From Malacoraja senta (taxonomy: Eukaryota), in the NCBI GenBank assembly GCA_038087875.1, contig CM075991.1, positions 13,206,001 through 13,270,000 of the forward strand: DNA of 64,000 nt. The letters are read 5' to 3'. The notes under the pieces were generated by a model, which worked only from the letters and a program-made list of their open reading frames with translations, was not told the origin of the DNA and did not search any database. Below are positions 8,220 through 56,300 of the stretch, piece after piece. Both the position numbers and the translations under genes were made by a program. Position 1 is the first letter of the stretch; each line of letters starts with the position of its first letter.

Positions 8220-8408
8220 TTAATCTATTTTTTGAATTTTAAAATATTTGGCTTCCATGTTATTTGTGTCATTGTCAACCGTCACCTTTTTATTTGCGTG
8301 GTGGATAAACCAACCTGCTGCCAGACATGACTCAAAATATATTCGCTCATCGGACTGCACCACCTTTTTAAAAAGGAAAGCCTCATTGGTCGGCTTTCCT
8401 TCGTTGGG
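8220..8408 (-). CDS. IL-1 family cytokine, terminal exon
   Basis: tttctttattccag|CCC..GAT TAA. PNEGKPTNEAFLFKKVVQSDERIYFESCLAAGWFIHHANKKVTVDNDTNNMEAKYFKIQKID* carries the IL-1 family FLF..FES.xx.GWFI pattern. Confidence 0.85.
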   Translation of the reverse strand, partial: PNEGKPTNEAFLFKKVVQSDERIYFESCLAAGWFIHHANKKVTVDNDTNNMEAKYFKIQKID

Positions 8409-8743: not shown

Positions 8744-8868
8744 CTGTAGTATGAGCTTTCGGCTGTTTCCCTGACCGATGCAGACCGATACCGATGAGTA
8801 TTTCCCGGAATCTTTGCTAAAATGCAGAGATACAATGTCATCTCCATGTGGGGTGATTTTTACCTTGG
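8744..8868 (-). CDS. IL-1 family cytokine, penultimate exon
   Basis: tgatttccag|CC..CTACAG|gtaaat, 125 nt, phase 1/0. (A)KVKITPHGDDIVSLHFSKDSGKYSSVSVCIGQGNSRKLILQ joins the terminal exon in frame. Confidence 0.82.
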
Positions 8869-10374: not shown

Positions 10375-10501
10375 CATTGCGGTTAGAATTCATGGACTTC
10401 AGTATCACTTCGTTCGAAGATTCGTATATCCTCACGATTCTGTTATCTGAAGTGTAAATGTAATAGCTACGTTCATTGTCCATATTTCCGATGGTTTCTA
10501 C
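10375..10501 (-). CDS. IL-1 family cytokine, first exon of the beta-trefoil region
   Basis: tttttttcacccag|GTA..AATG|gtaagc. VETIGNMDNERSYYIYTSDNRIVRIYESSNEVILKSMNSNRN ends in phase 1, matching the next exon. An alternative acceptor 4 nt inside (exon start 10497) is possible. Confidence 0.78.
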
Positions 10502-10787
10502 CTGGGTGAAAAAAAAACATTTTAGGGTCATAGCCGAGAAGATGAAGTGACCATTTTATTTGCATTCACATAGTAATTCAAAGAAATCTAAAGCTGTAAT
10601 TAAACTACAATTGTAATGCTTATAATACTTATGACTGTAATGCTTATATTCCCTATATTTTAAATTCAAGTTACATAGTCTCCACTGTAATACAGTGCTG
10701 CCCCAACTACGCTGAAGTCACGAGCTGTGTAATACGTGCGTTTGACTGTCCAAAGGCTGAGACCAAGCCACTGAAGTGCATATTGGT

Positions 10788-13118
10788 CTGGTGTACACCA
10801 ACATTAAAGATGCATATAGAGCAGCCCCCCTCCCCCATATCGGCAACTCTGACCACCTAGCGGTTATGCTCACACCTGCATACAGACCCAGGGTGAAACA
10901 GGACAGGCCAACGGTCAAAGAAGTCAGAACATGGCCACAGGGAGCTACTGCAGCACTACAAGACTGTTTTGAAACCACACAGTGGGCTGTTTTCAGAGAG
11001 GCAGCAACAGATGACAGTAGCATCAACCTCCAAGAATACAGAATCCGTCATCGGATACATCAATAAATGCACTGATGATGTAACGGTGGTAAAAACCGTC
11101 AGGAGGCGTGCCAATCAGAAACCTTGGCTAACTGGGGAAGTGTGTTCCCTACTGAGAATCCGGAATGCTGCATTCAAATCTGGGGACAACGCAGCATACA
11201 AACTGGCAAGGAGTAACCTATCCCGGGGGATCAGGGAAGCGAAGAGGCTGTATGGACAAAAACTTAATAGCCACTTCGCAAATGACAAAGACACACGTCG
11301 CTTGTGGCAGGGATTTCATACCATCACTGACTACAAGCCCCCACCCGCTGCGGATATGCCAAAACGACCCCTCTCTACCAGATGAACTGAACGAGTTCTA
11401 CGCACGGTTTGAGGTTGAAAACACCACCCAGACACGTGCACTACTGCCATCTCCCAGTGACCAGTCGCTCAGGCTGTCCGCAGCCGGAGTTAAAAAGGCC
11501 TTTGCCAGCATCAACCCACGCAAAGCTGCAGGGCCGGACAACATTCCTGGATGCGTTTTAAGAGACTGCGCCGAGCAACTGAAAGATGTCTTCACAGACA
11601 TTTTTAACATCTCACTCAGCCAGGCAGTAGTGCCCAACTGTCTTAAGAGTGCCACCATCGTCCCTGTCCCGAAGAAACCAAACCCAGCCTGCCATAATGA
11701 CTTTCGACCAGTGGCTCTAACACCCATAGTAATGAAGTGTTTTGAGCGACTGGTTATGCAGCATATCAAAAATAGTCTACCTGCCGACCTAGACCCACTG
11801 CAGTTCGCCTACAGAGCCAACCGATCCACAGAGGACGCAGTCTCAACAACACTGAACCTCGTACTGTCACACCTTGATCGGAAAAATACTTATGCCAGGA
11901 TCCTCTTCATAGACTTCAGCTCTGCTTTTAATACAATCATTCCGCAGCAGCTGGTGGAGAAGTTGGAGCTATTGGGGGTTGATGCTGGCACATGTAACTG
12001 GGTCCTGAACTTTCTATTGCAACGGCAGCAGACAGTCAGGGTGGGCAGTAGGACATCAAAAACCATAGCCGTGAGCACTGGCTCGCCCCAAGGCTGTGTC
12101 CTAAGCCCCCTACTGTTTAGTCTGCTAACACACGACTGTACTGCTAGACTCAACAACAACTTCATCAACAAGTTCGCTGATGACACAACAGTGGTGGGTC
12201 TCATCAGTGACAATGATGAGTCGGCGTACAGGATGGAGGTGGAGCTGCTCACAGGATGGTGCAAATCCCACAACCTCATTCTCAACGTGGGAAAGACTAA
12301 GGAGATGGTGGTTGACTTCAGGATGGCGGGAAAACAACACCATACACCTCTGCACATCGATGGAGCTGATGTGGAAAGGGTCAACAGCGTGAAGTTCCTA
12401 GGACTCCACCTGTCAGATGACCTGACGTCCACGACCAACACCACAGCACTGGTCAAGAGAGCCCAGCAGCGACTACACCCTCTCCGAAGACTACGTAAAG
12501 CAGGTCTCTCCACTACACAACCACAAACTTTTTATAGGGGGACAATCGAGAGCACATTAACCTACGGCATCACTTCCTGGTTCGGGAGCTGCAAGGCGTA
12601 CGAACGGCACCAACTAGACAGGATTGTGAAGACTGCCAGCAGGATTATTGGTTCTCCACTCCCTTTCCTGCTGGACATATACAGGAAGAGATGTATCAGC
12701 AGAGCCATCTCCATCATCAAAGACCCCTACCACCCATCGCATCACATATTCTCCATCCTGCCATCTGGGAAGAGGTACAGGAGCATTAGGTGCAAAACCA
12801 GCAGGATGCTCCTCAGCTTCTTCCCGCAGGTTATAAGACTGATAAACGGACTTTGCCCCCTGCCAAAGTATCGTGCACCAACCACCAACCTGGACACACT
12901 GCAGCAGAGCCACTGTCGTGCCGCTGCCGATCGGAACGCCTGTTGATGTTTAGTAGAGAGTAGAGTGTTCATTTGTTCATGATATATGTATTTTTTACTT
13001 CTATTTATTTTTTACTGCACACTGAAATGGACACTGGTTGAGGAACGTTTTTTTGTTTCCTCTGGGTATGTGAATACTCAGGAAATGACAATAAAGATAT
13101 ACAATACAATACAATACA
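10788..13118 (+). mobile_element. Rex1/Babar-clade LINE, 5'-truncated, in an intron of the IL-1 family gene
   Basis: RT ORF 11165-12946 ([33 protein letters not shown]). The endonuclease tail (SDH) is frameshifted. (TACAA)n tail; TSD atattggt at 10780-10787 and 13119-13126. Confidence 0.9.
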
Positions 13119-13770
13119 ATATTGGTACGGCTGTAATTAGCTCCGGAGCAGCAGCGATGTTATGAAACTTTTCAAAGAGCAGAGAAGGGAGAGGTGATTC
13201 CAGTGCTAAGGATGGTGCCAATGGTGGAACAGTTAAGAACGGAGGAAGACTGCGATGTGTAAGGACGATGGGCTGCAGGAGATGCTGCGGCAGGGTGGGT
13301 CTGATCATGTGCAGGATCAAGTTAGATTGGATAGGGAGCCAGTTTGGGTAATACTAATAGAAAGTGATATTATATATGTTCCATCAATGGGAGCTAGCCA
13401 GGAGAGAATTAGAGTAGCCAGGAGAGAATTAGAGTAGCCAGGTTGAAAGCTAGATGGTATGAATCTCCCCAACTTTTACAGATGTTTAAGGAGATTCAGC
13501 ATCTCACCACTCCTTAGGCTCTTGGACAACCCTACCTTAGCAAACATCCGTCGTGGACTTTGCGCTATAACGCAAGATTAAAGCCACAGCAAGTAAGAGT
13601 TTAATTGTTCTGATCCCAGAGCAAATAACAAACACTTGATTCTTTATACTCTTGAACGATGAGCTCAGCGGGACTATGAGTGAAATAATCACCATTTTCC
13701 GAGCTGCAAGCGGGGAGGTGTTTTTTTCAGGAAATGTTAGCAAAGTAGCGAGGGTCTCATTTAAACTCAC

Positions 13771-13815
13771 ATCCTCCACTTCAGCCTCTTTATCCACACA
13801 GGTGCTGACCGGAGT
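13771..13815 (-). CDS. Candidate pro-domain exon of the IL-1 family gene
   Basis: cccttcttcag|ACT..GAGGAT|gtgagt reads TPVSTCVDKEAEVED, and phase 0 joins VETIG. Alternative acceptor gives a start at 13804. Upstream coding exons are unresolved. Confidence 0.45.
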
Positions 13816-14395
13816 CTGAAGAAGGGTCTCCACCTGAAACGTCACCCATTCATTCCCTCCAGAGATGCTGCCTGTCCCGCTGAGTTACGCCAGCATTTTT
13901 GCCTATCTTCGGTCCTGACCACTCCTCCCTGCAAAAGCTCCCGAGTTCGGCCACTCTCCCAACCCTCGGACACTCGCCCCTCCCCCAGTTCCGACCGGAC
14001 ACCCACGCACTTCCCCATTCCGTCGTGTCAGTGAAAGCGAGCGGACAGGACAAAGATCGCCAATTCTCAGATCAGGAATCATGTTTCAGTCTGAAGATGA
14101 GCCCGACCCGAAAAGTCACCCATCCACGTTCTCCAGAGTCGCTGCCTGACCCCTCCAACTGTGTCGTTATTTTAATCATGCCTCAGGTCGTGGACCCGAG
14201 GACAGGTGCCGGGGGTGGAGCGCCTACTGTTTCTCCTTGTGCAAGCGCTACCTCGGTCCTGGCTGGTGACATCTTGCATCTCCTTTCCCTGACAGTATTA
14301 TAGGGTTACCGGTTACGGTTAGGTACTATAGCGCCGTTTCACTTAATTCCCAAACATCTTAAGGACAATTATAACCAATACTAGAGATCTCTCTT

Positions 14396-16250
14396 CTTCT
14401 TCTTCTTGTAGGATTCCGGCAGTGTAGACGCTGCTAAGCGTATTACTGCCCTCCACAGGTCAAAGTTTGAACTAAATTCTTACATACAGTCCTGTAACTT
14501 GCAGGAATTGAAGAACAGCCCTGGATATCAGTTGATGTTTCTCATTGTGTCCAAACAAAGATAAAACAGAAAAAGCCTCAACTCCAAGTCCTGTCAGTCT
14601 AACAAACAATACTTTTCTTTCTACCCTATACTTTTTACATTCTAGGAAAACATGCTTAACTGTCTCATTACTCCCACATTCACACAAGCCAGAAACATGT
14701 TTCCCTACAATGCACAAATAGTAATTTAACCCAGTGTCCCAACCTCAATCTACACAGTTTAACTGAGTCCCTACGGGACAGAGATGTACAGAAACATATT
14801 TTCCTAACTTCAGATTGTATAGAAAAGTAGTGTCTACCCCTGACTTCCATTTCCCATCCTCTCTGCCATTCTTTTGTTAAGCCCTCTTTAATTATTTCTC
14901 TCAGTTCCACTCTCCCCAATGATACATGGATATCTATTTCTCTTCTTAAACTCTCCTTTGCTATGAGGTCCACCTGCTCATTCCCTCACCCCAGCATGCC
15001 CGGGAACCCAGCAAAAAGTGATGTTACACGCAAACCCAATTCTAGAAAACACACTCAAGATTTCATTTAGAATGTCAGGACGAGCTTTAGATTTCCCTAC
15101 TCTTAATGTTTCAAGAGCAGCTGCAGAATCAGAACAGATAATGACTTCTCTAAAACTGGCTTCCTCAATCCACCAGAGAGCCCATTGAATTGCCATTAAT
15201 TCAGTCGTGAGAACAGAACTTCCATCAGAAATGCGCCGGCCAATCTTCAACCCAAGCTGCTCCACATACACTCCAAACCCAGCTCTCCCACTAACTGGAT
15301 CTTTAGATCCATCTGTAAAAACAATCAAAGTACTCTCACTGATTGAATTAAGATATTCCACTATTCTTGGAGTCACCTCGCGCTTATCTTTTTCCTGAAG
15401 AAAAGCAAGCTCAATAAACAGTTCAGGAAGAACCCAATAGGGCACAGGTAGCCTTATTGTATGCTCTATAATACCCCCTTGTTCCAAACCCAGCTTCCTA
15501 GCCCACTGATTTATAATGACAAAAAATGTGTTATATTTGTTACCATCATCAACCTCTTGCAACAAACACCTTGCTGGGAAGGTATCATTACACCCACAAA
15601 GTTTAGCCCAGTAATGTAACCCTAGCTTAATGCGCCTTAACCATAAGGGCATTTCTCCCATTTCAACAATCAGGGCAGGGACTGGGGAAGTCCTGAAGGC
15701 TCCACAGCAAAGCCTCAAAGCTTTTGCCTGCAACACATCTAGCCTAGCCAGAACAGTTTTAGACGCAGACCCATACACAAAACACCCATAGTCAACAGAA
15801 GATCTGATCATGGCCTGATAAATTAGCAGCATTGTCTCCCTGTTGGCCCCCCACTCACACCCAACCAGACTTCTCATAACATTCAGAACTTTTTCACACT
15901 TCAACACAATTTTACCTACATGCCCAGCCCAAGTCATACGCTCTTCAAACCAAACACCCAAAAACTTAAAAACCTTTACCTTCTCCAATAGAGACCCATA
16001 CATATACAGCCCTAACTTAGATAACTTTCTTTTAAAACCAAATACCATATATTTAGTCTTAGAGGCAGAGATTTTAAAGCCCCATGTGTCCCCCCATTCC
16101 TCTACAGACACTAACACTCTTTGAATCTGTTTTAAAACAAACTCTACATTACAACCTCTTTTCCAGATGGCCCCGTCATCTGCAAACAAAGACAGACCAA
16201 ATCCTCTCTCTAATTTACAAAATATGTCATTTATCATGATATTAAATAAA
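14396..16250 (-). mobile_element. Nimb/I-group LINE fragment with RT end, RNase H and CCHC
   Basis: LFADD, VFTDGSKD, IICSDS, WVPGHAGV, RLRLGH, CECG..ETVKH motifs. (AAG)n tail; TSD actagagatctctct at 14380 and 16251. Confidence 0.88.
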
Positions 16251-18412
16251 ACTAGAGATCTCTCTTTGAATTAAACCATTTAAAAAGCCGTGTTCTTGTA
16301 CTAATCGCCACCCAATGACTGTCGCAGATAAATAGCAGCGAGTAGATGTGGCGCTGATTCTCTCTCAGCATCACCTGGTTGAATAGCCTTTCGGGCCAAG
16401 AGAACAAAACGCCTCGGGCCAGTGCCAAATGAGGAACCCTACTGCAGCAGGAAAATCTTTCACCACACACGCTTCCAGCCTGGTCTATTTTTGTTTTCGC
16501 TTCACAGCATCTGCAAAGTGTTCCTTTTGGACTATTGTGGAGGTTTTTAATCTCATAACCACCCACCCCCCCCCCCCCCCAAACTAATTGTTTGCATCAT
16601 CAGTGGTGCAGAAGTGGGAATGGCACTTCACATTCCTTGCTGTTAATATTACTAATGATCTGTCATGGAGCAACCATATTGATGCAACAGCTATGAACGC
16701 ACACCAATTTATCTATTTTCTGGAGAGAATGAAGACATTTGGCATGTTTCCAGTGTATAGTATATCTGATCTGTTGGGATGGCATGTAAAACAAAGCTTT
16801 TCACTGTACCTCGAAACGTGACAATAATAAACCTAAAGCTGATCCAACCTGATGCAAGAAAAGCCATGTGCCAGACAACATCCTACTGTCCCACTGAAAA
16901 AGTGTGCTCCTCAGCTAGCTGAGCCTCCAAACAAACCATTTCAGTACAGTTGGGAAATTGCCCTGGAATATCCTATTCTCTAAAAGCAGGAAAAATCCAA
17001 TCCACCTAATTACTATTCAGTCAGGCTATTGTCAATCATCATCAAAGTGACGAAAGCTGCAGTGTTATCAAGTGAAACTCACCAATAACTTATTCCCCAT
17101 CACCCAATTTGGGTTCAACTCCAGACATCATCACAAACGTTGTCCAACCAAAGACTAAAGGGCTGAATTGCAGAGGTAAGGTGAGAACGACTGCCCTTTA
17201 ATTCAAGGCTTGCTGGAGTTCGGAGTCGGTCACCAACCAGGTCAGCTCCCGATGTTACCATCCACAGGGCCCACGCCCGAAGTCTCACGTGTGTGTGTGA
17301 GCGGTCACCAAGAAATTGTGTCTCCCCGTGTTTTGATAGCGATTTCCGCCATTGCTCTACAAAACACAATCTGCATACTCTGGCAGCAGCTCTCAAATCC
17401 ACAATCTCAGCCATCAAGAGAGCTAATGACAATAGGTGTCTGCTATTTCTTTCTTGGTTCCACACCATCCTGACCCGGAAGTAGATTGCTTTTCCTTCAT
17501 TGCATCTAAGACTTGGAACTCTCTGCCAAACAGCCCTTTGAGGAACCTTCACCTGAAGGACTGCATGAAGATGGCCTTTACAGAGCAGTTAAGGGATAGG
17601 TAAGAAAACTCCTCACCCTGTCATCTCTGCAAACAACCCCCTCACCCACTCCCTCTGTGCACCCAGTTTGAGAGATCTACTCAGCTACTTATATTGTACT
17701 GCTGTATGAACAACTTTTAACCCTGAACAATCTTTGGAACCCTCTCATTCACAACTGAACGGTACTTCCATCAGCTAGAGTGCATTCCTGACCTCCCATC
17801 TTCCTGATCGGAGACCTAAATGTCGTCCCCTTTATCCTTTATCTGTACACCCTGCATTGCTTGTTTTGTCTTGTTTTCGTGGCTTGTTTTCTTTGACTGC
17901 ATAGCACACAAACTAAATGTTTTCACTGTACTTCAGTGTACATGACAATAATAAACTAAACTAAAGATCCTAGAATCCATTCTCAGATGATAAGTAGGTA
18001 AATAACAGCAAATATTCTTGCAATTGGAGCTAATATAAATAAATTCATTTCTTTTTTGCTAAATGAGTAGCAAATTCATCCAGTATATCTAACCCTTTGC
18101 TCTATATATTGTACTTGAGTTTGACTTGATTGCATTTACTTTTGAGTTCTCTGATCTGTTTAGATAGCATGCAATATGTACCTATCGGCACATTGACAAT
18201 AAACCTAATCCTAAACCAACATCAACAATCAAGAAGAAAAGTGCATTAATAATTTAATCTTACGTTCTAATCTTACGAACGATGATAAACAGATATTGCA
18301 AGGTCAAACCCCAAATTAAAATATATAGATGGAGAACTGTCCCCAGAAGTATGGATCAATAACATTATCCTAGTTTAGTGCAGCATTCCGCTTTGTACAA
18401 AGACATACTCAC

Positions 18413-18553
18413 TTAGCTTTCGAGGGTTTATTGAGCTTCGCCTCACTGATGCTCACCAGCTAATGCCTGGTACGTTCCTGGTTTCTCCCTCCTTTATATA
18501 GAAATAAAGGTGAGGCTTTCAACTACCAGTTGTCTGACTTCCTGTTGTGTAAT
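18413..18553 (-). promoter_or_regulatory. Putative promoter and non-coding exon 1 of the IL-1 family gene, proximal copy
   Basis: C/EBP-type TTGTGTAAT (18545-18553) abuts ETS/PU.1 CAGGAAGT (18537-18544). TATATAAA at 18493-18500. A gtgagt donor at 18407-18412 would close a ~55-nt exon with no ATG. Confidence 0.6.
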
Positions 18554-18665
18554 AATCAGATTTCATGAAAGTGATATGGCACCATATCAGGCATAACATA
18601 AGGTTCATAAGCATTTAACACATAGTTGTGTGAAACCAATGTTGTGCAATGTCAATGGCAAGTCT

Positions 18666-20120
18666 TTTTTTAATGTTTTTATTTTTTATTTTATTTTTTA
18701 GAAGTAAGTACAATAATGTGTTACCAAAGTACCTAATACTTATTGACATATTACATTTCATATACAACTTCTTATTTTTAATTTAATAATAAAGCAAAAA
18801 TAAGAAATGAAAGATTACAAAAGGAAAGATTGAGATGAAGTGTTGCGTGAGATAGCAAAATAGCCCTAGAAAAAAAATGAGGAGAAAAAAAGAAGAGAAT
18901 AAAGAAAAAAGAAACAAAAGAGAAGAGGAAAGGAGATTGAAAGCGATAAGTCTATTTCATAATCCTGTTTCTGAACCATTATATTTCTATGATTGTGTTG
19001 CACCATATGCTTGTAGAAAGTCGATAAAGGGAGACCATATCAATAAGGTCTACCTTACCTACTAGGAGTCGTATTTCTTCAAGATATGCCGTTTCTGACA
19101 TATTTGAAATCCACATTTTCAGTGTTGGTGTTGGCGAATCTTTCCAAAATTTAAGTATGAGTTTTTTTGCCATTATTAAACTGTAATTAAGTAAGGATTT
19201 TTGATACGTATTTAGCTTATTCCCGTCTTCCAGTGATCCAAAGATAATCATTTCTGTATTCGATTCCAGTCTTCTATTAATTAAATTTGTAAAAATTTCA
19301 TTCCAGAATTTATGAAGTTTTATACAGGAGACAAAAGAGTGTTATAGTGGCATTCTCAGCTAAGCATTTATCACATATTGGTGAGATATTTGGATAAAAT
19401 TTATACAATCTAGCTTTCGAGTAATATAGTCTATGTAAAATTTTAAGTTGGATTAAATTATGTTTTACATTAATCGAACATTTATGTATATATATCAGGT
19501 ATTTTTCCCATGCTTCTTTCGCAATTTTTATCTGTAATTCTTGTTCCCAATCTACTATAATTGCTTCTGTCGATGGAGGTTCTATATTTTAAATGATATT
19601 ATATGTATGATATTAAATTGCTTGAATCTGCTTTAATATTCATCGCTTCATCTAGTGAATCTAAAGTTATATATTGATATCCTTGTATGTGTTTTTTCAA
19701 ATAATCTCTAATTTGAAGGTATTTAAAGTATTGATTATTTTTCAAGTTGTATTTTAATTGTAGTTGTTGAAATTATTTAAAAAAATCCCATTTCATACAA
19801 ATCTCCAAAGCTTTTAATTCCTAATCTTTCCCAAAAGGTATACGCTTCATCAATAAGAGATGGCTTAAATGAGGGGTTATTTACTATTGGAGTTAAAAGC
19901 GATAAATTTCTTACTTTCAAAGTTAGTTTTATTTGTTTCCAAATTCGAATTGTGATGTGAATAATTGGGTTCTTCTTATATATTGTATTGTTTAATTTTA
20001 TTGGGGAGAAGAGGATCGCTCCTATATTAAAAGGAGAACAATCCTCTTTCTCCATTCTTATCCATTCTACCTGTTGGGCAGAGCTGTCCCACCAATTAAT
20101 TATGTTCTTAATATGTACTG
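18666..20120 (-). mobile_element. L1/Tx1-clade LINE, 5'-truncated and degenerate
   Basis: A-rich tail at ~18666-18700. ORF2 C-terminal remnants (NPIIHITIRIWKQI, QLKILHRLYYS, CDKC, AKKLILKFWK). Confidence 0.82.
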
Positions 20121-20349
20121 CCTATCGGCACATTGACAATAAACCTAATCCTAAACCATCAACAAACAAGAAGAAAAGTGCATTAATAATTTAATCTTAC
20201 GTTCTAATCTTACGAACGATGATAAACAGATATTGCAAGGTCAAACCCAAAATTAAAATATATAGATGGAGAACTGTCCCCAGAAGTATGGATCAATAAC
20301 ATTATCCTAGTTTAGTGCAGCATTCCGCTTTGTACAAAGACATACTCAC

Positions 20350-20490
20350 TTAGTTTTCGAGGGTTTATTGAGCTTCGCCTCACTGATGCTCACCAGCTAA
20401 TGCCTGGTACGTTCCTGGTTTCTCCCTCCTTTATATAGAAATAAAGGTGAGGCTTTCAACTACCAGTTGTCTGACTTCCTGTTGTGTAAT
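20350..20490 (-). promoter_or_regulatory. Putative promoter and non-coding exon 1, distal duplicate copy
   Basis: Near-identical to 18413-18553: donor 20344-20349, TATA 20430-20437, ETS 20474-20481, C/EBP 20482-20490. Confidence 0.6.
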
Positions 20491-21859
20491 AATCAGATTT
20501 CATGAAAGTGATATGGCACCTTATCAGACATAACATTAGGTTCATAAGCATTTAACACATAGTTGTGTGAAACCAATGTCAAGTCAAGTCTATTCTCATT
20601 TCCTTCTGAATATCCTGATCCAAGAAAAACAAAAATTGATTCATTTGTTAATCTATGTGAAATCTTTAGAGACTACGACCCGCACTTTGGCATTCGTGCC
20701 GGATGACTTAACTTGGGTTTTTATGTTAATACCTTGTTAATAAAGTGATATCTCAAATGTAGCCTTGTGTAAAAAAAATCACAAAACATTGTGAATGAGA
20801 TGTCAATATACAAAATGTTAATTGTAACATTAAAACAGAATATCTTTATTTGTTCTGTTGTGTGGTTAGCAATGGTGTACTTTTAACAATTCCATTTTAT
20901 GGCACTAATTTTCCCGAATGTGATTTCACTCTTGCCATCGGGTAGAAGGTACAGGAGTCTGAAAGATGTGAGCTCCAGGTTCAGGAACAGCTTCTTCCCA
21001 ACAACCATCTGGCTATTGAACACTACAAACACCAACTAAACTTCAAACTATGAACTGTATTAGTTGTATGAGGGATTTGGGCTTCGGTTGTGTTTTGAAC
21101 TATAGTGGGGGTTTTCATTTCTTGAACTTTTTTGTTTGCTTATTTTGTTATCTCTTCAGTACAGTGTTTGCAAAAGTATGGTGCTGCAAGCAAGAATGTT
21201 ATTGTTCTTTCGGTACATATGAAAATTAATCACTTAACTTCACTACTTTGAAAGGCTCACTGAGAAATTTGACAGTTAATAATAAATGAAGAATGGAATT
21301 AGTAATTGGCAAATGAGAAGTTCCACGTTTGATTAATTAGATCCTTCACAAGGCTGAAAGTGCCCAGGCCTGGTGGGGTACTTGATCTGACCGTACTCCT
21401 AAAACACATGCGCAACAACCGTCTGAAGGTTTTGCAGACATCTTCAGTCTCTCATTACTGAGGTTCCCTCCTGCCTTAAAAGGACTTCAATAATACCGGT
21501 GCCCAAGACAAGTATGGTGACATGTCTCAATGATCACTGACCAGTGACACTGATGTCTGTGGATGAAGTGCTTTGACACGTTGGTTATGACACATCATCT
21601 CCGGCCTTAGTAAGGGCTGGGCCCACTACTATTTCTCTACTGTGAAATTGGATCAACAATATTGATTACAATATTGTTTGCAATGGATGAAATACATTTG
21701 GAGGCTGGAGGCATAGATTTAAGACAAAATATGATGTATACTTGTTGGTACATGAAACCGTGTTGTTGAGATCAGACTATTTGACTGAACTGATTTCACA
21801 CTTGACTGGAGAGAGACAGTGGGTAACAAATAACACATCTAATTTGCGTATTGTTTCCG

Positions 21860-21995
21860 GTTTGGGGTGGGAGATTGCAACCTTCACGTGGTCCACCCTG
21901 TTTAGACGAATGCAATCAACCCGACATGCACAAACAAGCTCAAATAGAACAAGTTGACCTGCATCTTTAGGCTGTGCATGCCATACACAAGAATT
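21860..21995 (+). mobile_element. Short non-autonomous element sharing the Vingi 3' end
   Basis: Same ~135-bp sequence as 46969-47110, flanked by tttccgg repeats. The tail ctttaggctgtgcatgccatacacaagaa matches 62284-62323(-). Confidence 0.7.
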
Positions 21996-21999
21996 TCCG

Positions 22000-22750
22000 G
22001 AAGTGGCGGCGCTGCCAAGCAGCTCGCTTGCAGTCCGTCTGTCTTTTCCTTTTTTTGTTTTATTTTGTCTTGTTAGATGTACGTTTTAGACTAATTTTAG
22101 TTGTGTATATGTGGGTGGTGGGGGAAACTTTTTTTAACTCTTCCTTCAACAGGAATGCGACCTTTTCCTTGTCATATCTTTGTCTCCGTCTGCGCCGAGG
22201 CCTAATATCGTGGAGCTGGAGGCCTCCAACTGGAATCGACCTTGGGGGCTCCGGTGGCAGAGCCTGTAGACTCACCATCGCGGAGCTTGCTGACTCCGGC
22301 TGTGGTGGTGCTGTGGCTGCGACCCGACTTTGGAGCTTCGGCCGCGAGCCATGTGGACGGTAGCATCGGGTGCTCGCAGGTCCCTGGTTGGTGACCGATT
22401 CTCGGGAGCTCCCGCAACAGCAGCTTCATCCACCACGGGTCGCGGAGTTTGAATCAGCCCATTCGCGGAGCTTGGAATCGGCCGCGGGATTTACCATCAC
22501 CCTGCGAGGGCTTCAACATCGAGAGCCTTGATCGCCTCGACGCAGCGGGAGAACAAGCAAGGAAGAGATAAGACTTTTTGCCTTCCATCACAGTGAGGAG
22601 ATGCCTGGAGATTCACTGTGATGGATGTTTGTGTTAAATTCTGTTCATTGTGTGTATTATGTTGCTTTTTTTTCTGTCATGACTGCAAGCTACGCAATTT
22701 CTTTCTAACTATTGTTTGAATGACAATAAAGGAAATTCAATTCAATTCAA
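22000..22750 (+). mobile_element. Unclassified non-autonomous retroposon
   Basis: GC-rich body with no ORF, ending tgacaataaag..(ATTCA)n, like the tail of the Rex1-type element in this window. Confidence 0.45.
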
Positions 22751-23032
22751 GAAGAAGAAGGTTACCGGTTAGATGACTGAACTGGATCACATTTACATGA
22801 CATTCCCTATGGATTACTCATGGGATGGGACAGTTTTTATTTCCATAATGATCCCAGTTTTCCCATTTACACTTCTCATCCCTTTTATCTAGCCATGCAT
22901 CAACCTTTTCTTTTGATTAACATGTAATGAGCATCCCTGCCTTGTAACTCACTTCCAGTGAGCTGTACTGATGCTGTGCACACAGCATCAGGCCAACAGT
23001 CGATGATCTTTTCCTTTATTTTGATTTATTTA

Positions 23033-23400
23033 ATAGTAAGATTAAATGAGAACTTACCAGTTTGAAGTTTGATCTTTATTTTATGAGGGGTTACGTTGAG
23101 GGATTACGTGAAGAACCCGCCAGCACGCAAATCTTCAAAGCAGCGGTGTGAAATCACAGATGACAGTTGGTGAACTGAATATAGTAAGATTAGAGAACTA
23201 GCATACCAGCTGACCTTTATGATAGAGGGTTGGGAGTGGAGGGCACGTAATCCCACAACGTAACGCCTCATAAAATAAAGATCAAACTTCTAACGGGTAA
23301 GTTCTTGTTTAATCTTACTATTTTACTTCTGACTCACGTGAGTGACTACGTGAAGATTTCAAAGCTCTGTGATTTCATGCCGTGGAACGAGTCCATGCGT
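23033..23400. mobile_element. Palindromic element, DIRS-like terminal remnant
   Basis: ~75-bp inverted repeats (23033-23110 and 23245-23321), with internal partial copies of the terminal motifs (atagtaagatta, tacgtgaaga). Confidence 0.5.
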
Positions 23401-23489
23401 CACACACTGTAATAACTGACCAAGGAGGAGTAACTAGAATGCATTCAGACATGACATGGTTATTTGAACATGCTGATGCTTTATTAAGC

Positions 23490-23935
23490 GTCTGTCCCAA
23501 CTGTCATATGCTGAGAGAATGGAGCGGCTGGGCTTATATACTCTGGAGTTTAGAAGGTTGAGAGGGGATCTTATTGAAACACATAAGATTATTAAGGGTT
23601 TGGATACGCTAGAGGCAGGAAACATGTTCCCGATGTTGGGGGAGTCCAGAACCAGGGGCAACAGTTTAAGAATAAGGAGTAAGCCATTTAGAACAGAGAT
23701 GGGGAAACCCTTTTTCACAGAGTTGAGAGTCTGTGGAATTCTCTGCCTCAGAGGGCGGTGGAGGCCGGTTCTCTGGATACTTTCAAGAGAGAGATAGATA
23801 GGGCTCTTAAAGATAGCGGAGTCAAAGGATATGGGGAGAAGGCAGGAACGGGGTACTGATTGGGGATGATCAGCCATGATCACATTGAATGGCGGTGCTG
23901 GCTCGAAGGGCCGAATGGCCTCCTCCTGCACCTAT
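23490..23935 (+). mobile_element. CR1-clade LINE 3' fragment
   Basis: RLGLYTLEFRRLRGDLIETHKI..SRTRG, with the same 3' UTR as the element at 44042-46793. Confidence 0.88.
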
Positions 23936-24118
23936 TTTTTAATGTATCTGTGTACTTTCACCTCTCACCTTTCTCTGCCCTTTGATTTGTTTTAGGTTTG
24001 CAAACCAATGATAGCTGTTGAGTTGCTGGTGTTAAGCAAGTGGGTGAACGTGATTGAGTGTTCTGCTCAGCGATGCTCTTGACCAAAGATCACAGAGCTC
24101 ATATAATCTTTGCTCTTG

Positions 24119-24247
24119 TTCAAGAGGGAACTCCAGATGCTGGAAAATCGAAGGTAGACAAAATTGCTGGGGAAACCCAGCGGGTGCCGCAGCATCTATG
24201 GAGCGAAGGAAATAGGCGACGTTTCGGGCCGAAACCCTTCTTCAGAC
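24119..24247 (-). mobile_element. Penelope-derived mini-element with hammerhead-like motif, just upstream of PURB
   Basis: Matches 2675-2770. TSD taatc(t/a)ttgctcttg at 24104-24118 and 24248-24262. Confidence 0.8.
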
Positions 24248-24310
24248 TAATCATTGCTCTTGACTCTTCCCGCCAACGGTGCGGCCCATGCGCGCGCCCG
24301 CCTCTCTCGC

Positions 24311-38297: not shown

Positions 38298-39787
38298 TTG
38301 GACAAAGACCCATCATTTATTTATTTGCCTCTGTACTCCACAATTTGAGATTTGTAATAGAAAAAGTCACGTTAAAGTGCACATTGTCAGATTTTATTAA
38401 AGGGCATTTTTATACATTTTTGTTTCACCATGTAGAAATTACAGCTGTGTTTATACATAGTCCCCCCATTTCAGGGCACCATAATGTTTGGGACACATAG
38501 CTTCACGGGCGTTTGTAATTGCTCAGGTGTGTTTAATTGCCTCCTTAATGCAGGTATAAGAGAGCTCTCAACACCTAGTCTTTCCTCAAGTCTTTCCATC
38601 ACCTTTGGAACCTTTTGTTGCTGTTTATCAACACGAGGATCAAAGTTGTGCTAATGAAAGTCAAAGAAGCCATTATGAGACTGAGAAACAAGAGGAAAAC
38701 TGTTAGAGACATCAGCCAAACCTTAGGCTTACCAAAATCAACTGTTTGGAACATTAAGAAGAAAGAAAGCACTGGTGAGCTTACTAATCGCAAAGTAACT
38801 GGCAAGCCAAGGATGACCTCCACAGCTGATGACAGAAGAATTTTCTCTATAATAAAGAAAAATCCCCAAACACCTGTCTGTCAGATCAGAAGCAGTCTTC
38901 AGGAGTCAGGAGTGGATTTGTCAATGACCACTGTCCGCAGAATACTTCATTAACAGAAATACAGAGGCTACGCTGCAAGATGCAAACCACTGGTTAGCTG
39001 CAAAAATAGGAATGGCCAGGTTACAGTTTGCCAAGATGTACTTAAAAGAGCAACCACAGTTCTGGAAAAAGGCCTTGTGGACAGATGAGACGAAGATTAA
39101 CTTATCATAGAGATGGCAAGAGCAAAGTATGGAGGAGAGAAGGAACTGCCCAAGATCCAAAGTATACCACCTCATCTGTGAAACACAGTGGTGGGGGTGT
39201 TATGGCCTGGGCATGTATGGCTGCTGAAGGTACTGGCTCACTTATCTTCATTGATGGTAGTAGCATAATGAATTCTGAAGTGTATAGACACATCCTATCT
39301 GCTCAAGTTCAAACAAATGCCTCAAAACTCATTGGCCGGCGGTTCATTCTACAGCAAGACAATGATCCCAAACATACTGCTAAAGCAACAAATTAGTTTT
39401 TCAAAGCCAAAAAATTGTCAATTCTTGAGTAGCCAAGTCAATCGCCCTATCTGAACCCAAAAGAGCATGCCTTTTATATGCTGAAGAGAAAACTGAAGGG
39501 GACTAGCCCCTAAAACAAGCATAAGCTAAGGATGGCTATAATACAGGCCTGGCTGAACATCACCAGAGAAGACACCAGCAACTTGTGATATCAATGAATT
39601 GCAGACTTCAAGCAGTCATTGCATGCAAAGGATATGCAACAAAATACTAAACATGACTATTTTCATTTACATGACATTGCTGTGTCTCATACATTATGGC
39701 GCCCTGAAATGGGGGGACTATGTATAAACACTGCTGTAATTTCTACATAGTGAAACCAAAATGTATAAAAATGGCCTTTAATAAAAT
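38298..39787 (+). mobile_element. Near full-length defective Tc1 transposon (IR/DR-type long TIRs)
   Basis: ~200-bp TIRs with the internal repeat cataatgtttgggaca. Transposase ~38633-39650 (HTH, WTDETK, QQDNDPKH, ATKY*) with stops and frameshifts. Both outer ends are clipped. Confidence 0.9.
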
Positions 39788-51200: not shown

Positions 51201-52590
51201 ATCATTCCTCCACTTTATCCACATCGCTGGAATCCTGCTACCTCATCAGGTACGCCAGAGCAGGTACAGCCTTAGACACAGAATGAGGCTCTCCCCATGA
51301 CATCATCCTATTCGTCATTAAGCTGCCATCCCACAGCAACATTAGCTGAAACCACAATGGTAGTTTGGCCAGTACCCCAATGACAACTAACTCTACCTCA
51401 CCACATAGTTTGCTAACCCCTGAGTGGATGAGTGGAAATTTCTTCCCACATAAATATTGGAAAGGCTGAAAATAAGTCCCCCTTGCATCCTCTCCAGTAT
51501 AATTGCACCTTTCTTGTAATGCAGCAACCAGCTGGGTACCGACTTTATTGGCCTGTCCTGCTACCCTTGAAGTTATCTGGATATTTGCACCCTCTGTTCC
51601 TCCAACCACTCCATATCCCCCCCATTTATTATACATTCCCTAACCACGTTGTTCCTTCCAAATGTACAGTGCCCTCCATAATGTTTGGGACAAAGACCCA
51701 TCATTTATTTATTTGCCTCTGTACTCCACAATTTTGGTTAAAGTGCACATTGTCAGATTTTATTAAAGGGTATTTTTATACATTTTGGTTTCACCATGTA
51801 GAAATGACAGCTGTGTTTATACATAGTCCCCCCATTTCAGGGGAGTGGGTGCAGAGGGTGTGGGTATGTGCGGGGTGGGGAGAGGGGAGTAGGTGCAGCC
51901 TTGCATTGAAGCAGGCAGCTCCACACTGCTTGTGGCACAAGCTGGTTCAGCAGCAACCCTTGATACCAGCATTTTCCTCCTGAATCTCTGCTCATCATCG
52001 CACCCGTTATCCTCATCAGTCCCCATGCTTCCGATAGTTGGAAAAAGTCTCAGAAAACGTCCTGGAGAAACCTCAGATAAAAATGCTGAGAACTGAAAAC
52101 ATGAACTGAGGAATTTTATTGAATGCCTAAAAGCCACTCCTTTCTGTTAATGTTTAGCTGATAAGATTGAACTCTGACTTGCAAACAATCCTTACAGCTC
52201 CTGGTCCGTGAATCTCATTCATTCATCCAACTCCTGGGCCAACTTGGCATAGAGTTAATAGACTGGTTCTAAAACCAGGCAACGCAAGGGAGTGGAGAGG
52301 AGCAGGTACAGAGGTGCCACACTCCGTTGCCTCTCTCTAATACTGCCCATGGCTAGCTGATGCCCGTACAGCAGGAGCCCTGTGAATGAAAATACCAAGA
52401 AAGAAGCAGGTGATAAAAATGTTTTATATATGTGATAGAAGCACATAGGGCCATTTGGCCCATCAAGCTTACTGTGCCATTCAATCATGGCTGATCTATC
52501 TCTCCCTCCTAACCCCGTTCTCCTGCCTTCTCCCCATAACCCCTGACACCCGTACTAATCAAGAATCTATGTATCTCTGCCTTAAAAATA

Positions 52591-53355
52591 CAGTGCCCTC
52601 CATAATGTTTGGGACAAAGACCCATCATTTATTTATTTGTCTCTGTACTCCACAATTTGAGATTTGTAATAGTAAAAATCGCATGTGGTTAAAGTGCACC
52701 TTGTTTAATTTTAATAAAGGCCATTTTTATACATTTTGGTTTCACCATACATAAATGACAGCAGTGTTTATACATAGTCCCCCCATTTCAGGTTTGAGAC
52801 ACAGCAATGTCATGTAAATGAAAGTAGTCATGTTTAGTATTTTGTTACATAAATTTGCATGCAATGACAGCTTGAAGTCTGCGATTCATGGGCATCACCA
52901 GTTGCTGGATGTCTTCTCTGGTGATGCTCTGCCAGGCCTATATTGTCTTGCTGTAGAATGAGTTTTGAGGCATTTGTTTGAACTTGAGCAGATAAGATGT
53001 GTCATACACTTCAGAATTCATTATGCTACTACCATCAGGTGATGGAAAGACTAGGTGCTGAGAGCTCTCTTATACCTGTATTAAGGAGGCATTTAAACAC
53101 ACCTGAGCAATAACAAACACCTGTGAAGCCATGTGTCCCAAACATTACGGTGCCCTGAAATGGGGGGACTATGTATAAATACGGCTGTAATTTCTACATG
53201 GTGAAATTAAAATGTATAAAAATAGTCTTTAATAAAATCTGACAATGTGCACTTTAACCACGTGCGATTTTTTTAATTACAAATCTCAAATTGTGGAGTA
53301 GAGAGGCAAATAAATAAATGATGTGTCTTTGCCCCAAACATTATGGAGGGCACTG
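52591..53355 (-). mobile_element. Internally deleted Tc1 with both TIRs, nested in a CR1 3' fragment; solo TIRs also at ~51667-51841 and ~54877-55051
   Basis: ta|cagtgccctccataatg...cattatggagggcactg|ta. The internal pieces are reverse complements of parts of 38298-39787. Confidence 0.9.
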
Positions 53356-56300
53356 TATCCATTGACTTGGCCTCCACAGCCTGTAACAATGATAGGTCAG
53401 CAGATGAAGAATTTCACCGGTTAACGGATGTAGAGAATGTGAGGGATGTTGCTATGAGAGAGACAGCAAACGCTCAAAATGTACTCCAGGTCAGGAGGCT
53501 GATCCCTCTGGACTCAGGGAATAGGCTGGCTGTGGGAACAGAGGGAACTTTCTTTAGCAACGGGAAGAAGCAGTCGGCTGCTGTCAGGATTGCAGTGTCG
53601 TCAGAAATCTGCAGCAGCTGTCACATGCACTGCAGTTGTGACAAGCCTTGATGAGAATCAAAGAATGTAAAGACGAGGGAAGGGCGGAAATTGCAAAGTC
53701 TCTGAGCATTGTTTTCCAATGCTCCCTGGCTGCAGGAGCGGAAAGCTGCTAGTGAGGAAGAGATAAACTGATAATGACAGTGGCAGGCATTCTGTTGGAA
53801 TCCATTCGGAGGTTTTTATAAATCATTGTGTAGAAAGGCACACATTGATCAGGGAGAATCAGCAAGGATTTGTTAGAGGGAGGTATTTGGATTAAACGCT
53901 CCCATAATGACTGTACCACCACTGCTAGGCACACCTCCAATTTCTTGATGTATACCGTGCCCAATATTACAGCTACTATTTAGTTGACTATAAATAGCTC
54001 CTACCAATGCCTTTGCCCTTTGTTCCTTGGCCAAAACTGATTCTAATTCTACATCATTATCATTGACAAGCTAAGATCATTCCTCACCATTACACTGATG
54101 ATTCCTTACAGCACAGAGGGAAGGAGAGATCATATCCCTGGCAGTTTTCTGTGGAGAATCCCGATTAGCCGGTGGTGGGCGGCATAGTGGCAAAGCAGTA
54201 AAGTTGCTGCCTCACAACGCCAGAGACCCAGGTATGATCCTGACTACGGGTGCTGTCCGTGCGGAGTTTGTACGTTCTCCCCGTAACCATGTGGGTTTTC
54301 CCCAGGTGCTCTGGTTTTTTCCCACATCCGAAGATGTACAGGTTTTTGGTTAATTGGTTAATCCAGGATATAGGATACGATAAAACTTATTCATCCCCGA
54401 AGGGAAATTGGTCTGCGACAGTTACAACAACTTGAAATTAAAAGTGAAAACAAAAATAAGACAAGCGACTGTTGGCTGGCTGCCGTGTGCACAGCGCCTT
54501 CACTGGAACGAACGCAGACTTATCCCCTGGGCAGAGGAACTAGAGTGCACCCCCACACCGGATCCCCCTTTCTTCTCCCACCGGTTCCCCATGCCAGGTC
54601 CCCATTGTCATTGTTCATCGACTGCGAAGCCCCACCGCCACCGAGGCTCCGGCTACTGCCGAGGCTCCCATCGCCGCCACCTAGGCTCTGAGGCTCCTTC
54701 GGCTCACAGGCCTCGCCACCCGGCTTCACCGCAGTCCCCTGGGAGGCCTATGGGGCAAGTTGGGCCTACCGGGGCTCGTTCCGGTCTTCGTTCTGGTCGT
54801 TCGGTGCGGTTGTTTGGCGGGTGGATCGGGCCCGTGTGGCTCCCCGGGACATCGGCTCCATTTCATTCGAGGCATACAGTGCCCTCCATAATGTTTGGGA
54901 CAAACACCCATCATTTATTTATTTGCCTCTGTACTCCACAATTTGAGATTTGTAATAGAAATAAATCACATGTGGTTAAAGTGCACATTGTCAGATTTTA
55001 TTAAAGGCCATTTTTATACATTTTGGTTTCACCATGTAGAAATTACAGCTGTTGCCATGAGCAAGTGGTTCAAGATGTGGTAGAGGCGGGGGAGGGAGAG
55101 GCTGGCAGATACAGGAGATGTGGTTCTGTAGAGAGTACGTATCATCTGCCTGTGGAAATAGTTAATTAGGGATTTCAAAATTGGACAGACACTTGAGGAA
55201 ATCTAATTTACAGGGCTCTGCAGAAAGAGTAGGGATCAAGGCTGAGGGGATTACAATGGGGAACAGTCTGTTGCAAACTTAGGCACTGGGTCATGGCTTG
55301 TACATGTGCATCATAAATACACAGGAAGGAAGTCGTCAGAATAATATGGCCTATATTGGTTGAGTGAATGGAGTTACTATGCTGCACTCTGGGAAGATCC
55401 AGTGGCCAAGGAAGTCAGAGCCCGTCTCTGGAGGGAGCGTTGTGCCTCTGCTGACTTTACCCAGTCAGAGTAACATTTCATGGCCAGAACTCTTCTCCCT
55501 GCCTGAGTACATCTTCAACGACAGACTTGTCTTTGACCATCTCCTCCAGGTCCTAATCAGCCTGAACGCCCAGTAGAAACACGGCCAAATTCTCAAGGCC
55601 ACAGGGAACGAGTAAGGGAATGGGTTTGTGCAATAAGGAGCTAACATGAACTTGGCAGGCCAAATGGCATCTCTTATTGCTTTGTAGAAAGAGGCTTTGC
55701 CTCACAGCTGTGCTGAAATCGCCAGTGATGGTGGCCGTATGTGCTGAGCCAACGTGTGTGGATTGTCGCATTAAACAACACAGGTGCTGGGTTTCTCCCC
55801 TTGCTGCCTGACCTGCTTTCCATGCGCTTTAGTGCACACGAGTATCAGATGTGCATTGACGTGATCCCTGCTTCAGGTGCTTGCAGGTAATGCATGTGCT
55901 TCATTTTGCCAAGGGAGTGCACGTTAGATTTTACACACAGCTCAGTTCCAGAGCATTTTAAAAATGCTACGTTGTTCAATCGTGAATTGACAGACTGTGC
56001 AGAAACGAGGTTAACAGAATTCAAGCACTCTGATCCACATCTCATACAAGATTCATTCATGTCGATTTGATTTCGCAACAAGTGAAACAGGATCACCTTA
56101 ATCAGGCAAAGGGGTAACGTTTTTGCATTGGCAGGGCTTTTTGATATATATTTCTCCTCTTTGCTGTCGATCCTTTGATTCGAGGGTGATCTCCACGAGG
56201 GTTGTGAAACATTGATCCTGAAACCACTACGTTGTTGTAGAGATACAGAGGTCCCCTGGCATGTAAGATGGCTACAGTCTGGAAAAGCTCCCTGTTCCTT

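Follow-up and report, generated by a model that had tools for sequence, protein, structure and literature searches.

The DNA analysed here, referred to below as the window, is a stretch of 64,000 nucleotides (nt) from the skate Malacoraja senta (assembly GCA_038087875.1, contig CM075991.1, forward-strand positions 13,206,001 to 13,270,000), and coordinates are counted from its first letter. A gene that likely belongs to the interleukin-1 (IL-1) family lies on its minus strand, and upstream of the coding exons a stretch of host DNA is present twice, as a proximal copy (R1) and a distal copy (R2) that bracket a 5'-truncated L1 element (Table 1). The duplicated stretch carries the predicted promoter and first exon of the IL-1-like gene. 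We regard the pair as a known but rare outcome of L1 insertion, seen here in a new and well-resolved germline case on the predicted promoter of a likely IL-1-family gene.

Table 1. Features of the duplicated stretch, the bracketed L1 and the IL-1-like gene (window coordinates)
Feature	Position	Strand	Remarks
R1, proximal copy of the duplicated target	18181..18665		485 nt; ancestral 10-nt stretch retained; continuous with native left flank
R2, distal copy	20121..20591		471 nt; continuous with native right flank; 3 nt and 10 nt lost, altered beside the inferred nick
5'-truncated L1-type element	18666..20122	minus	broken ORF2 C-terminal remnant (about 20121-19048), 3' untranslated region, A-rich tail adjoining R1
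Host side of microhomology	18173..18182		9-mer and CC, within an older repeat tail at the left edge of R1
L1 side of microhomology	20110..20122		same 9-mer, three extra L1 letters, breakpoint in the shared CC
TATA box motif, R1	18493..18500	minus	TATATAAA at 18500-18493
TATA box motif, R2	20430..20437	minus	TATATAAA at 20437-20430; retained in organism C
Adjacent C/EBP-like and ETS motifs, R1	18537..18552	minus	ETS core AGGAAGT (18543), C/EBP-like TTACACAA (18552)
Adjacent C/EBP-like and ETS motifs, R2	20474..20489	minus	AGGAAGT (20480), TTACACAA (20489)
Second C/EBP-like motif	18642..18650		TTGCACAA (motif 18649-18642); in R1 and, with one change, in organism C; deleted from R2
Predicted non-coding exon and donor, R1	18407..18470	minus	about 58 nt, start inferred from TATA spacing; donor GTGAGT (18412)
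Predicted non-coding exon and donor, R2	20344..20407	minus	donor GTGAGT (20349)
IL-1-like gene, first coding exon (exon 2)	10375..10501	minus	ATG at 10483
IL-1-like gene, middle coding exon	8744..8868	minus
IL-1-like gene, last coding exon	8220..8408	minus	IL-1 signature region
Rival or additional upstream exon	13765..13830	minus	3' edge of a short interspersed element, donor at 13770; in a relative's transcript; in the CpG-rich stretch 13600-14400

As proposed in the preliminary description of this DNA, the two repeats are near-identical and flank the L1 with exact joints. They share 97.5% identity over 473 alignment columns and differ by six substitutions and a 3-nt indel in the aligned body, and by 10 nt and 1 nt at the right end. 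The element between them is 1457 nt long. Position 20122 is reached exactly by 21 of 28 other loci of the same L1 family, which then continue into further L1 sequence; the L1 is therefore cut at that base, and R2 begins there. A genome search with the insert, in which 40 of 10371 candidates were scored, put the best of these further copies at 90-95%. The insert aligns at 60-72% to residues 898-1260 of the 1273-residue ORF2 of a related intact element, and thus represents the C-terminal part only. This intact ORF2 exceeds the cut-offs for Exo_endo_phos and RVT_1. The L1-type characters observed are an A-rich 3' tail, 5' truncation and, in the related intact element, an ORF2 with endonuclease and reverse transcriptase (RT). 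The related element's ORF1 (331 residues) matched only coiled-coil families, weakly, and no L1 ORF1 family. The canonical duplication left by target-primed reverse transcription measures about 5-30 bp, against 485 nt here, and no separate short duplication was found at the L1's own ends (row L013 of the duplication search). The ends of the long duplication coincide exactly with those of the L1, which is the mark of a large target-site duplication (TSD) or an L1-mediated tandem duplication.

A genome search with R1 returned four matches only, corresponding to the R1/R2 pair and to its counterpart in a second assembled copy of the region, at a distance of 48.8 kb. A block of 39 kb (4182-42945) is indeed repeated just upstream at 99.3-99.7% across a gap of 200 N, with edges at contig ends (upstream copy at G000:C15 about 13161374-13209981). 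It is likely an uncollapsed haplotype and not a second gene cluster, judging from the sequence, and it doubles the IL-1-like and PUR genes in the assembly. The repeat-L1-repeat arrangement is present in both assembled copies, which differ from each other at one position in R1, none in R2 and four in the L1, and the differences diagnostic of R1 and R2 are the same in both, except at one site. In a run from the same species (X2), possibly not from the assembled animal, a contig over 20192-20579 with mixed R1 and R2 letters has a depth of 39.6, compared with 20.1 for a contig of unique flank, contig depth in this run not being equal to copy number. On the right it forks, the R1 form passing into a T run at a loose end (20579) and the R2 form passing into the flank. 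The joints of R1 with the tail and with the left flank rest on the two assembled copies and this one loose end.

Some features belong to the upstream assembled copy alone. It holds an L1 with intact ORF1 (331 residues) and ORF2 (1273 residues) and a 16-nt duplication (L010 3800-7621 and L081 419-1414, equivalent to 22166-22181 of the window), and a 1.24-kb inverted piece of local DNA lies between the two ORFs. In the same copy, 21518-24069 is doubled in tandem. All of this may be real rearrangement or misassembly. In the assembly, three groups of L1-family loci are near-identical repeats.

The state before the insertion is found in a related species (organism C, run X4), as a single unbroken contig of 851 nt that runs from 20121 through 20750 with 40 differences. 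It stops matching at 20121 without any extension into the L1; contigs of this L1 family do exist in run X4. Organism C, one species, thus provides the single-copy, L1-free relative that the preliminary description had suggested looking for. Its letters are those of R1 at 20166, 20249 and 20521, across the 3-nt indel and along the 11 extra letters of the right end; 20354 is the only site where it agrees with R2, and two further sites fall inside a deletion of organism C. The 10 bp by which the copies differ were first taken for a gain in the proximal copy, but organism C has the longer form, which is therefore ancestral and was lost from R2. The divergence between R1 and R2 (6 of about 460 positions, 1.3%) lies between that of the two assembled copies (32/18008, 0.18%) and that from organism C (6.3%). 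The duplication therefore likely predates the two assembled alleles and is much younger than the split from organism C, this being a relative dating only.

The 5' joint of the L1 carries a microhomology. The motif AATATGTAC, already noticed at both left junctions, occurs within the window only at 18173 and 20110, and this 9-mer is host-derived at the left joint of R1 and L1-derived at that of R2, the same 13 letters being present in 20 of the 21 family loci that cross 20110..20122. The breakpoint lies inside the shared CC, and the 9-mer has an offset of three letters. Among 200000 random pairs of L1 end and target, 188 gave a match of at least 9 within five letters of offset.

Long duplications are not what this L1 family usually makes. 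The sister set comprises 48 loci at 42 distinct sites, which are the best-scoring matches and no random sample; 26 insertions whose inferred 5' end lies within the flank were counted, and the other 22 loci were excluded because the 5' end lies outside the flank or because they are duplicates. The search for target duplications allowed one mismatch, as an exact-match search overlooked several short ones. Duplications of 9-19 nt were found in 16/26, none in 10/26, and a long unique duplication in 0/26. An apparent 565-nt duplication at locus L019 was rejected: here a family L1 lies inside an array of a 48-nt satellite, which mimics a long target duplication, and the locus is one of the 16 with a duplication of 9-19 nt.

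Because of the exact bracketing, the empty single-copy state in organism C and the microhomology at the 5' joint, we conclude with a probability of about 0.72 that one L1 insertion event made the second copy of the 485-base stretch, in agreement with the single retrotransposition-linked event first proposed. In such an event, the L1 endonuclease would have cut a short T-run where the stretch ends on the right, and reverse transcription from the A tail would have ended after about 1.46 kb. The end of the cDNA may then have annealed to the host strand at a point 485 bases further left, through the 9-base match and the two bases at the breakpoint with a 3-base bulge, and this pairing would have replaced the second nick about 15 bases away. 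Host synthesis would have recopied the stretch and restored the connection to the upstream DNA, either within one chromatid or with its sister. The 10 bases and the C/EBP-like site that R2 lost beside the presumed nick are possibly a repair scar.

Large target-site duplications are reportedly known from engineered human L1 in cultured cells, in work by Gilbert (2002, 2005) and Symer (2002). Duplications of more than 100 bp make up at most 10% of L1 insertions in HeLa cells and most insertions in cells deficient in nucleotide excision repair; they can double functional regions and may be lost by recombination (PMC5223499; here and below, papers are cited for the parts of them available to us). 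Invasion of the sister chromatid by the cDNA is described in PMC7058536, and small tandem duplications are treated as large TSDs made via break-induced replication in 10.1101/2024.12.14.628481. Tandem duplications bridged by an L1, with microhomology at truncated 5' ends, appear in PMC7058536, PMC11702581 and 10.1101/2024.12.14.628481 (2026 version). The skate pair resembles the cultured-cell events of engineered human L1 (PMC5223499) in its 5'-truncated L1, its A tail and a duplication of hundreds of bases, but it is in the germline, its copies have diverged by about 1.3%, a relative retains the empty site and the microhomology is readable. With L1-mediated tandem duplications of cancer genomes and L1-induced clones (PMC7058536; 10.1101/2024.12.14.628481) it shares an L1 that bridges the duplication ends and 5' microhomology, whereas those are somatic, extend from 1 kb to many Mb and show microhomology of 1-5 bp, compared with 2 bp at the break and a bulged 9-mer in the skate.

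Several observations count against a single event. The L1/R2 joint lacks cover in X2 (no cover about 20146-20191), and the comparison with organism C ends at 20121, 59 letters short of the end of its contig. The nick site, at a TTTT run, is only inferred from a comparison of R1, R2 and organism C, and no clean TTTT/AA is present. Moreover, a route in two steps would leave identical sequence, including the 9-mer. On this route, a longer L1 would have inserted with a short duplication, and a later microhomology-guided exchange in a heterozygote, between the L1 interior and the empty homologue, would have removed the 5' part of the L1 and gained a second 485 bases. The 9-base match would suit it, as PMC7058536 reports 1-5 bp at the 5' joints of L1, and the 1.3% between R1 and R2, set against 0.18% between the assembled copies, could partly be an old allelic difference. 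We nevertheless find it unlikely: two rare events would be required at one site, the intermediate is seen neither in the two assembled copies nor in X2, and 5' truncation with microhomology is the normal ending of an L1 insertion (PMC11702581).

Much less probable still is a tandem duplication made first by ordinary repair, with the L1 arriving later on its joint. The left edge of the repeat does lie in an old repeat tail, and the genome has other local duplications, but the L1 would have had to hit the joint to the base and to share the 9-mer with the left edge of the repeat by chance (see the frequency in random pairs above). The lack of any short duplication belonging to the L1 itself makes this order unlikely. 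That the pair is an artefact of assembly is scarcely credible: the assembly does seem to hold false duplications, such as the 39-kb block across the 200-N gap and the three groups of near-identical L1 loci, but the pair is present in both contigs with identical diagnostic differences, polarisable sites distinguish R1 from R2, and among the X2 contigs the right end continues into both forms.

Within the duplicated stretch, the TATA, ETS and C/EBP-like motifs, the GTGAGT donor and the second C/EBP-like motif of R1 all lie where the preliminary description had placed them. In the predicted layout, the ETS and C/EBP-like pair stands about 40-50 nt above the TATA box and a consensus donor 88 nt below it, an arrangement that none of 411 background TATA sites and none of 20000 resamples reproduced. 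All four elements are retained in organism C, and the R2 ETS/C/EBP pair lies in a 45-nt block without a listed difference in that species. The likeness to the mammalian IL1B promoter drawn at the outset holds on the human side, where PU.1 as an anchor, C/EBP-beta and a TATA box are described (PMC3731334), and in the skate a TATA box with adjacent ETS and C/EBP-like motifs and a predicted short non-coding exon recall it. It fails as a statement of homology and is kept as an analogy only: the host is a skate whose IL1B lies elsewhere in the cluster, the module is a predicted promoter, a comparison of R1 with 18 kb around the skate's own IL1B gave no promoter similarity (best E 1.1), and a pattern search of the repeat found no NF-kappaB motif. 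A literature search for an insertion of a long interspersed element (LINE) with a duplicated promoter returned no like case as judged by titles and the openings of abstracts.

Other observations weigh against a promoter function. The patterns of the motif test were picked after the sequence was seen, conservation of the ETS/C/EBP block is weak (0/45 differences, P about 0.08), and the TATA-proximal part is not conserved above background (5/51 differences). R2 carries more of the changes (7 of the 8 that could be polarised, P = 0.07; with the three beside the nick counted once, 5 of 6, P = 0.22), which hints at constraint on R1 without reaching significance. Two runs of other species, presumed to be RNA (X13, X19), gave no record over 20050-20750, which speaks neither for nor against expression. 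The sole transcript evidence for the 5' end is P0007, one contig of a relative, which joins an exon at 13827-13771 to exon 2 at 10501 and thereby gains 27 residues in frame at the N terminus. The surrounding 13.6-14.4 kb stretch has a CpG observed/expected ratio of 0.65-0.83, compared with 0.29-0.51 over R1. No upstream exon ending that accounts for the first two residues of P0007 was found in 13830-24300.

Transcription may thus start in this CpG-rich stretch, the module being an enhancer, a minor start or inert and its duplication of little effect, a reading to which we give somewhat less than even odds. The 13.8-kb exon has AG acceptor candidates and could be internal, and two Rhinoraja accessions carry the same 140-residue protein, which fits alternative untranslated exons; the retention of the four elements in organism C and the rarity of their arrangement likewise speak for the module. 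The module and the 13.8-kb exon can also coexist as alternative or successive exons. On balance, the motifs and their retention slightly favour use of the duplicated module as a promoter of the IL-1-like gene, while activity of both copies appears doubtful.

The two copies differ in what they kept. The separation of the proximal copy from its native upstream DNA, claimed from the start, is borne out: R1 retains about 195 nt of such DNA above its predicted start. The likely outcome is a proximal copy with the full ancestral motif set and this short native upstream piece, and a distal copy that kept its native upstream DNA and carries most of the later changes. The L1 lies in the sense strand for R2 transcripts and contains five AATAAA hexamers; a transcript fired from R2 would have to splice over this 1.46 kb and run through R1. 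Two other retroelement insertions lie between the repeat and exon 2 (10761-12946, plus strand, and 14400-16270, minus strand) and make the predicted first intron longer; one has RT (a 596-residue frame), the other both RT and RNase H.

The three coding exons of the IL-1-like gene form an open frame of 140 residues. The protein is identical at 107/140 positions to a protein from an assembly-run contig and at 97/142 to Rhinoraja LOC144610339 ("uncharacterized"), and relatives were found only in Rhinoraja and in assembly-run contigs. A phmmer search over cluster representatives returned only the Rhinoraja protein, four other matches being repeat-driven noise. The length is 140 residues here and in three of the four relatives, and 167 in P0007. 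Membership in the IL-1 family lies under the Pfam cut-off, which counts against it: the last exon and the four relatives match PF00340 with 13.8-16.2 bits, compared with the required 25 (E 0.009-0.047). HHalign to IL-1beta gives a probability of 50% and an E of 1.6e-4 over 60 columns, the pairwise score against IL-1beta is reached by 0-1 of 1000 shuffles, and three real proteins rank above all 3000 shuffles with an IL-1beta profile. Sequence searches of the PDB with the protein found no IL-1. The introns are in phases 1 then 0, as in the neighbouring IL1B, and both fall in the same columns of the pairwise alignment; a MAFFT alignment agrees on the position of the last one only. Two AlphaFold models are all-beta with pLDDT 35 and 40, the second biased by 15 IL-1beta rows. 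In fold searches with both, IL-1Ra structures rank first, none at E <= 0.001, the best being 0.003 with the IL-1beta-biased model and 0.68 without those rows.

The gene is part of an IL1B-CKAP2L-PUR cluster, where IL1B lies beyond a CKAP2-like gene on the other strand and a PUR gene follows head to head at 24.4 kb. The last exon of this IL1B is 97% identical to that of Amblyraja radiata and 96% to that of Rhinoraja longicauda. The weak Pfam matches, HHalign, the rank among shuffles, the intron phases and positions and the place in the cluster together suggest that the gene is likely an IL-1 paralogue. An IL-1beta orthologue was rejected, as the protein is without the long pro-domain (~300 residues) and the true IL1B is a separate gene in the cluster.

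IL-1Ra, IL-36 and IL-38 are short proteins without a long pro-domain. The skate protein resembles them in its ~140 residues, in last introns that match those of IL1B and in its location in the IL1B cluster; the kinship is a predicted one only, the fold matches are not significant and the relatives are confined to Rhinoraja and assembly-run contigs. IL-1anc/nIL-1F, as defined in the available part of PMC13736523, was also rejected, since no PDZ match was found and the gene lies within the IL1B cluster. Teleost IL1B is placed near CKAP2L and PURB in PMC7144542, and PMC5861070 also bears on the synteny context. A literature search found no account of this pro-domain-less skate gene in the accessible parts of the papers, supplementary gene lists (e.g. 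of PMC13736523 and PMC5861070) being outside its scope. Two further IL-1 family matches are located on another contig, at G000:C12:25560929-25561084 and 25514667-25514816 (L075, L078), one of them over the Pfam cut-off.

At 51664-55080, the window also contains nested and inverted fragments of DNA transposons, several with near-identical ends, which we take to be Tc1-like from transposase fragments at 38579-39396.

Cultured cells and tumours have supplied most of the known large target duplications, and the skate germline case shows how such an event can finish and last. If the module is a promoter, a single base that separates the copies, 18417 in R1 and 20354 in R2, lets the fate of two tandem promoters be followed directly. 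Comparative immunologists may find more interest in the gene itself, which is IL-1-like, lacks a pro-domain and lies within the skate IL1B cluster. A bolder and rather improbable extension is that a batoid IL-1 paralogue received two working tandem promoters with split inputs from one L1 insertion, the proximal one with two C/EBP sites and L1 DNA upstream and the distal one with the native upstream DNA, and that the gene is a pro-domain-less IL-1 not described before, which would be the independent counterpart of IL-1Ra/IL-36 in cartilaginous fishes. If the two promoters were indeed of this kind, long LINE duplications would have doubled promoters repeatedly in the genomes of sharks and skates.

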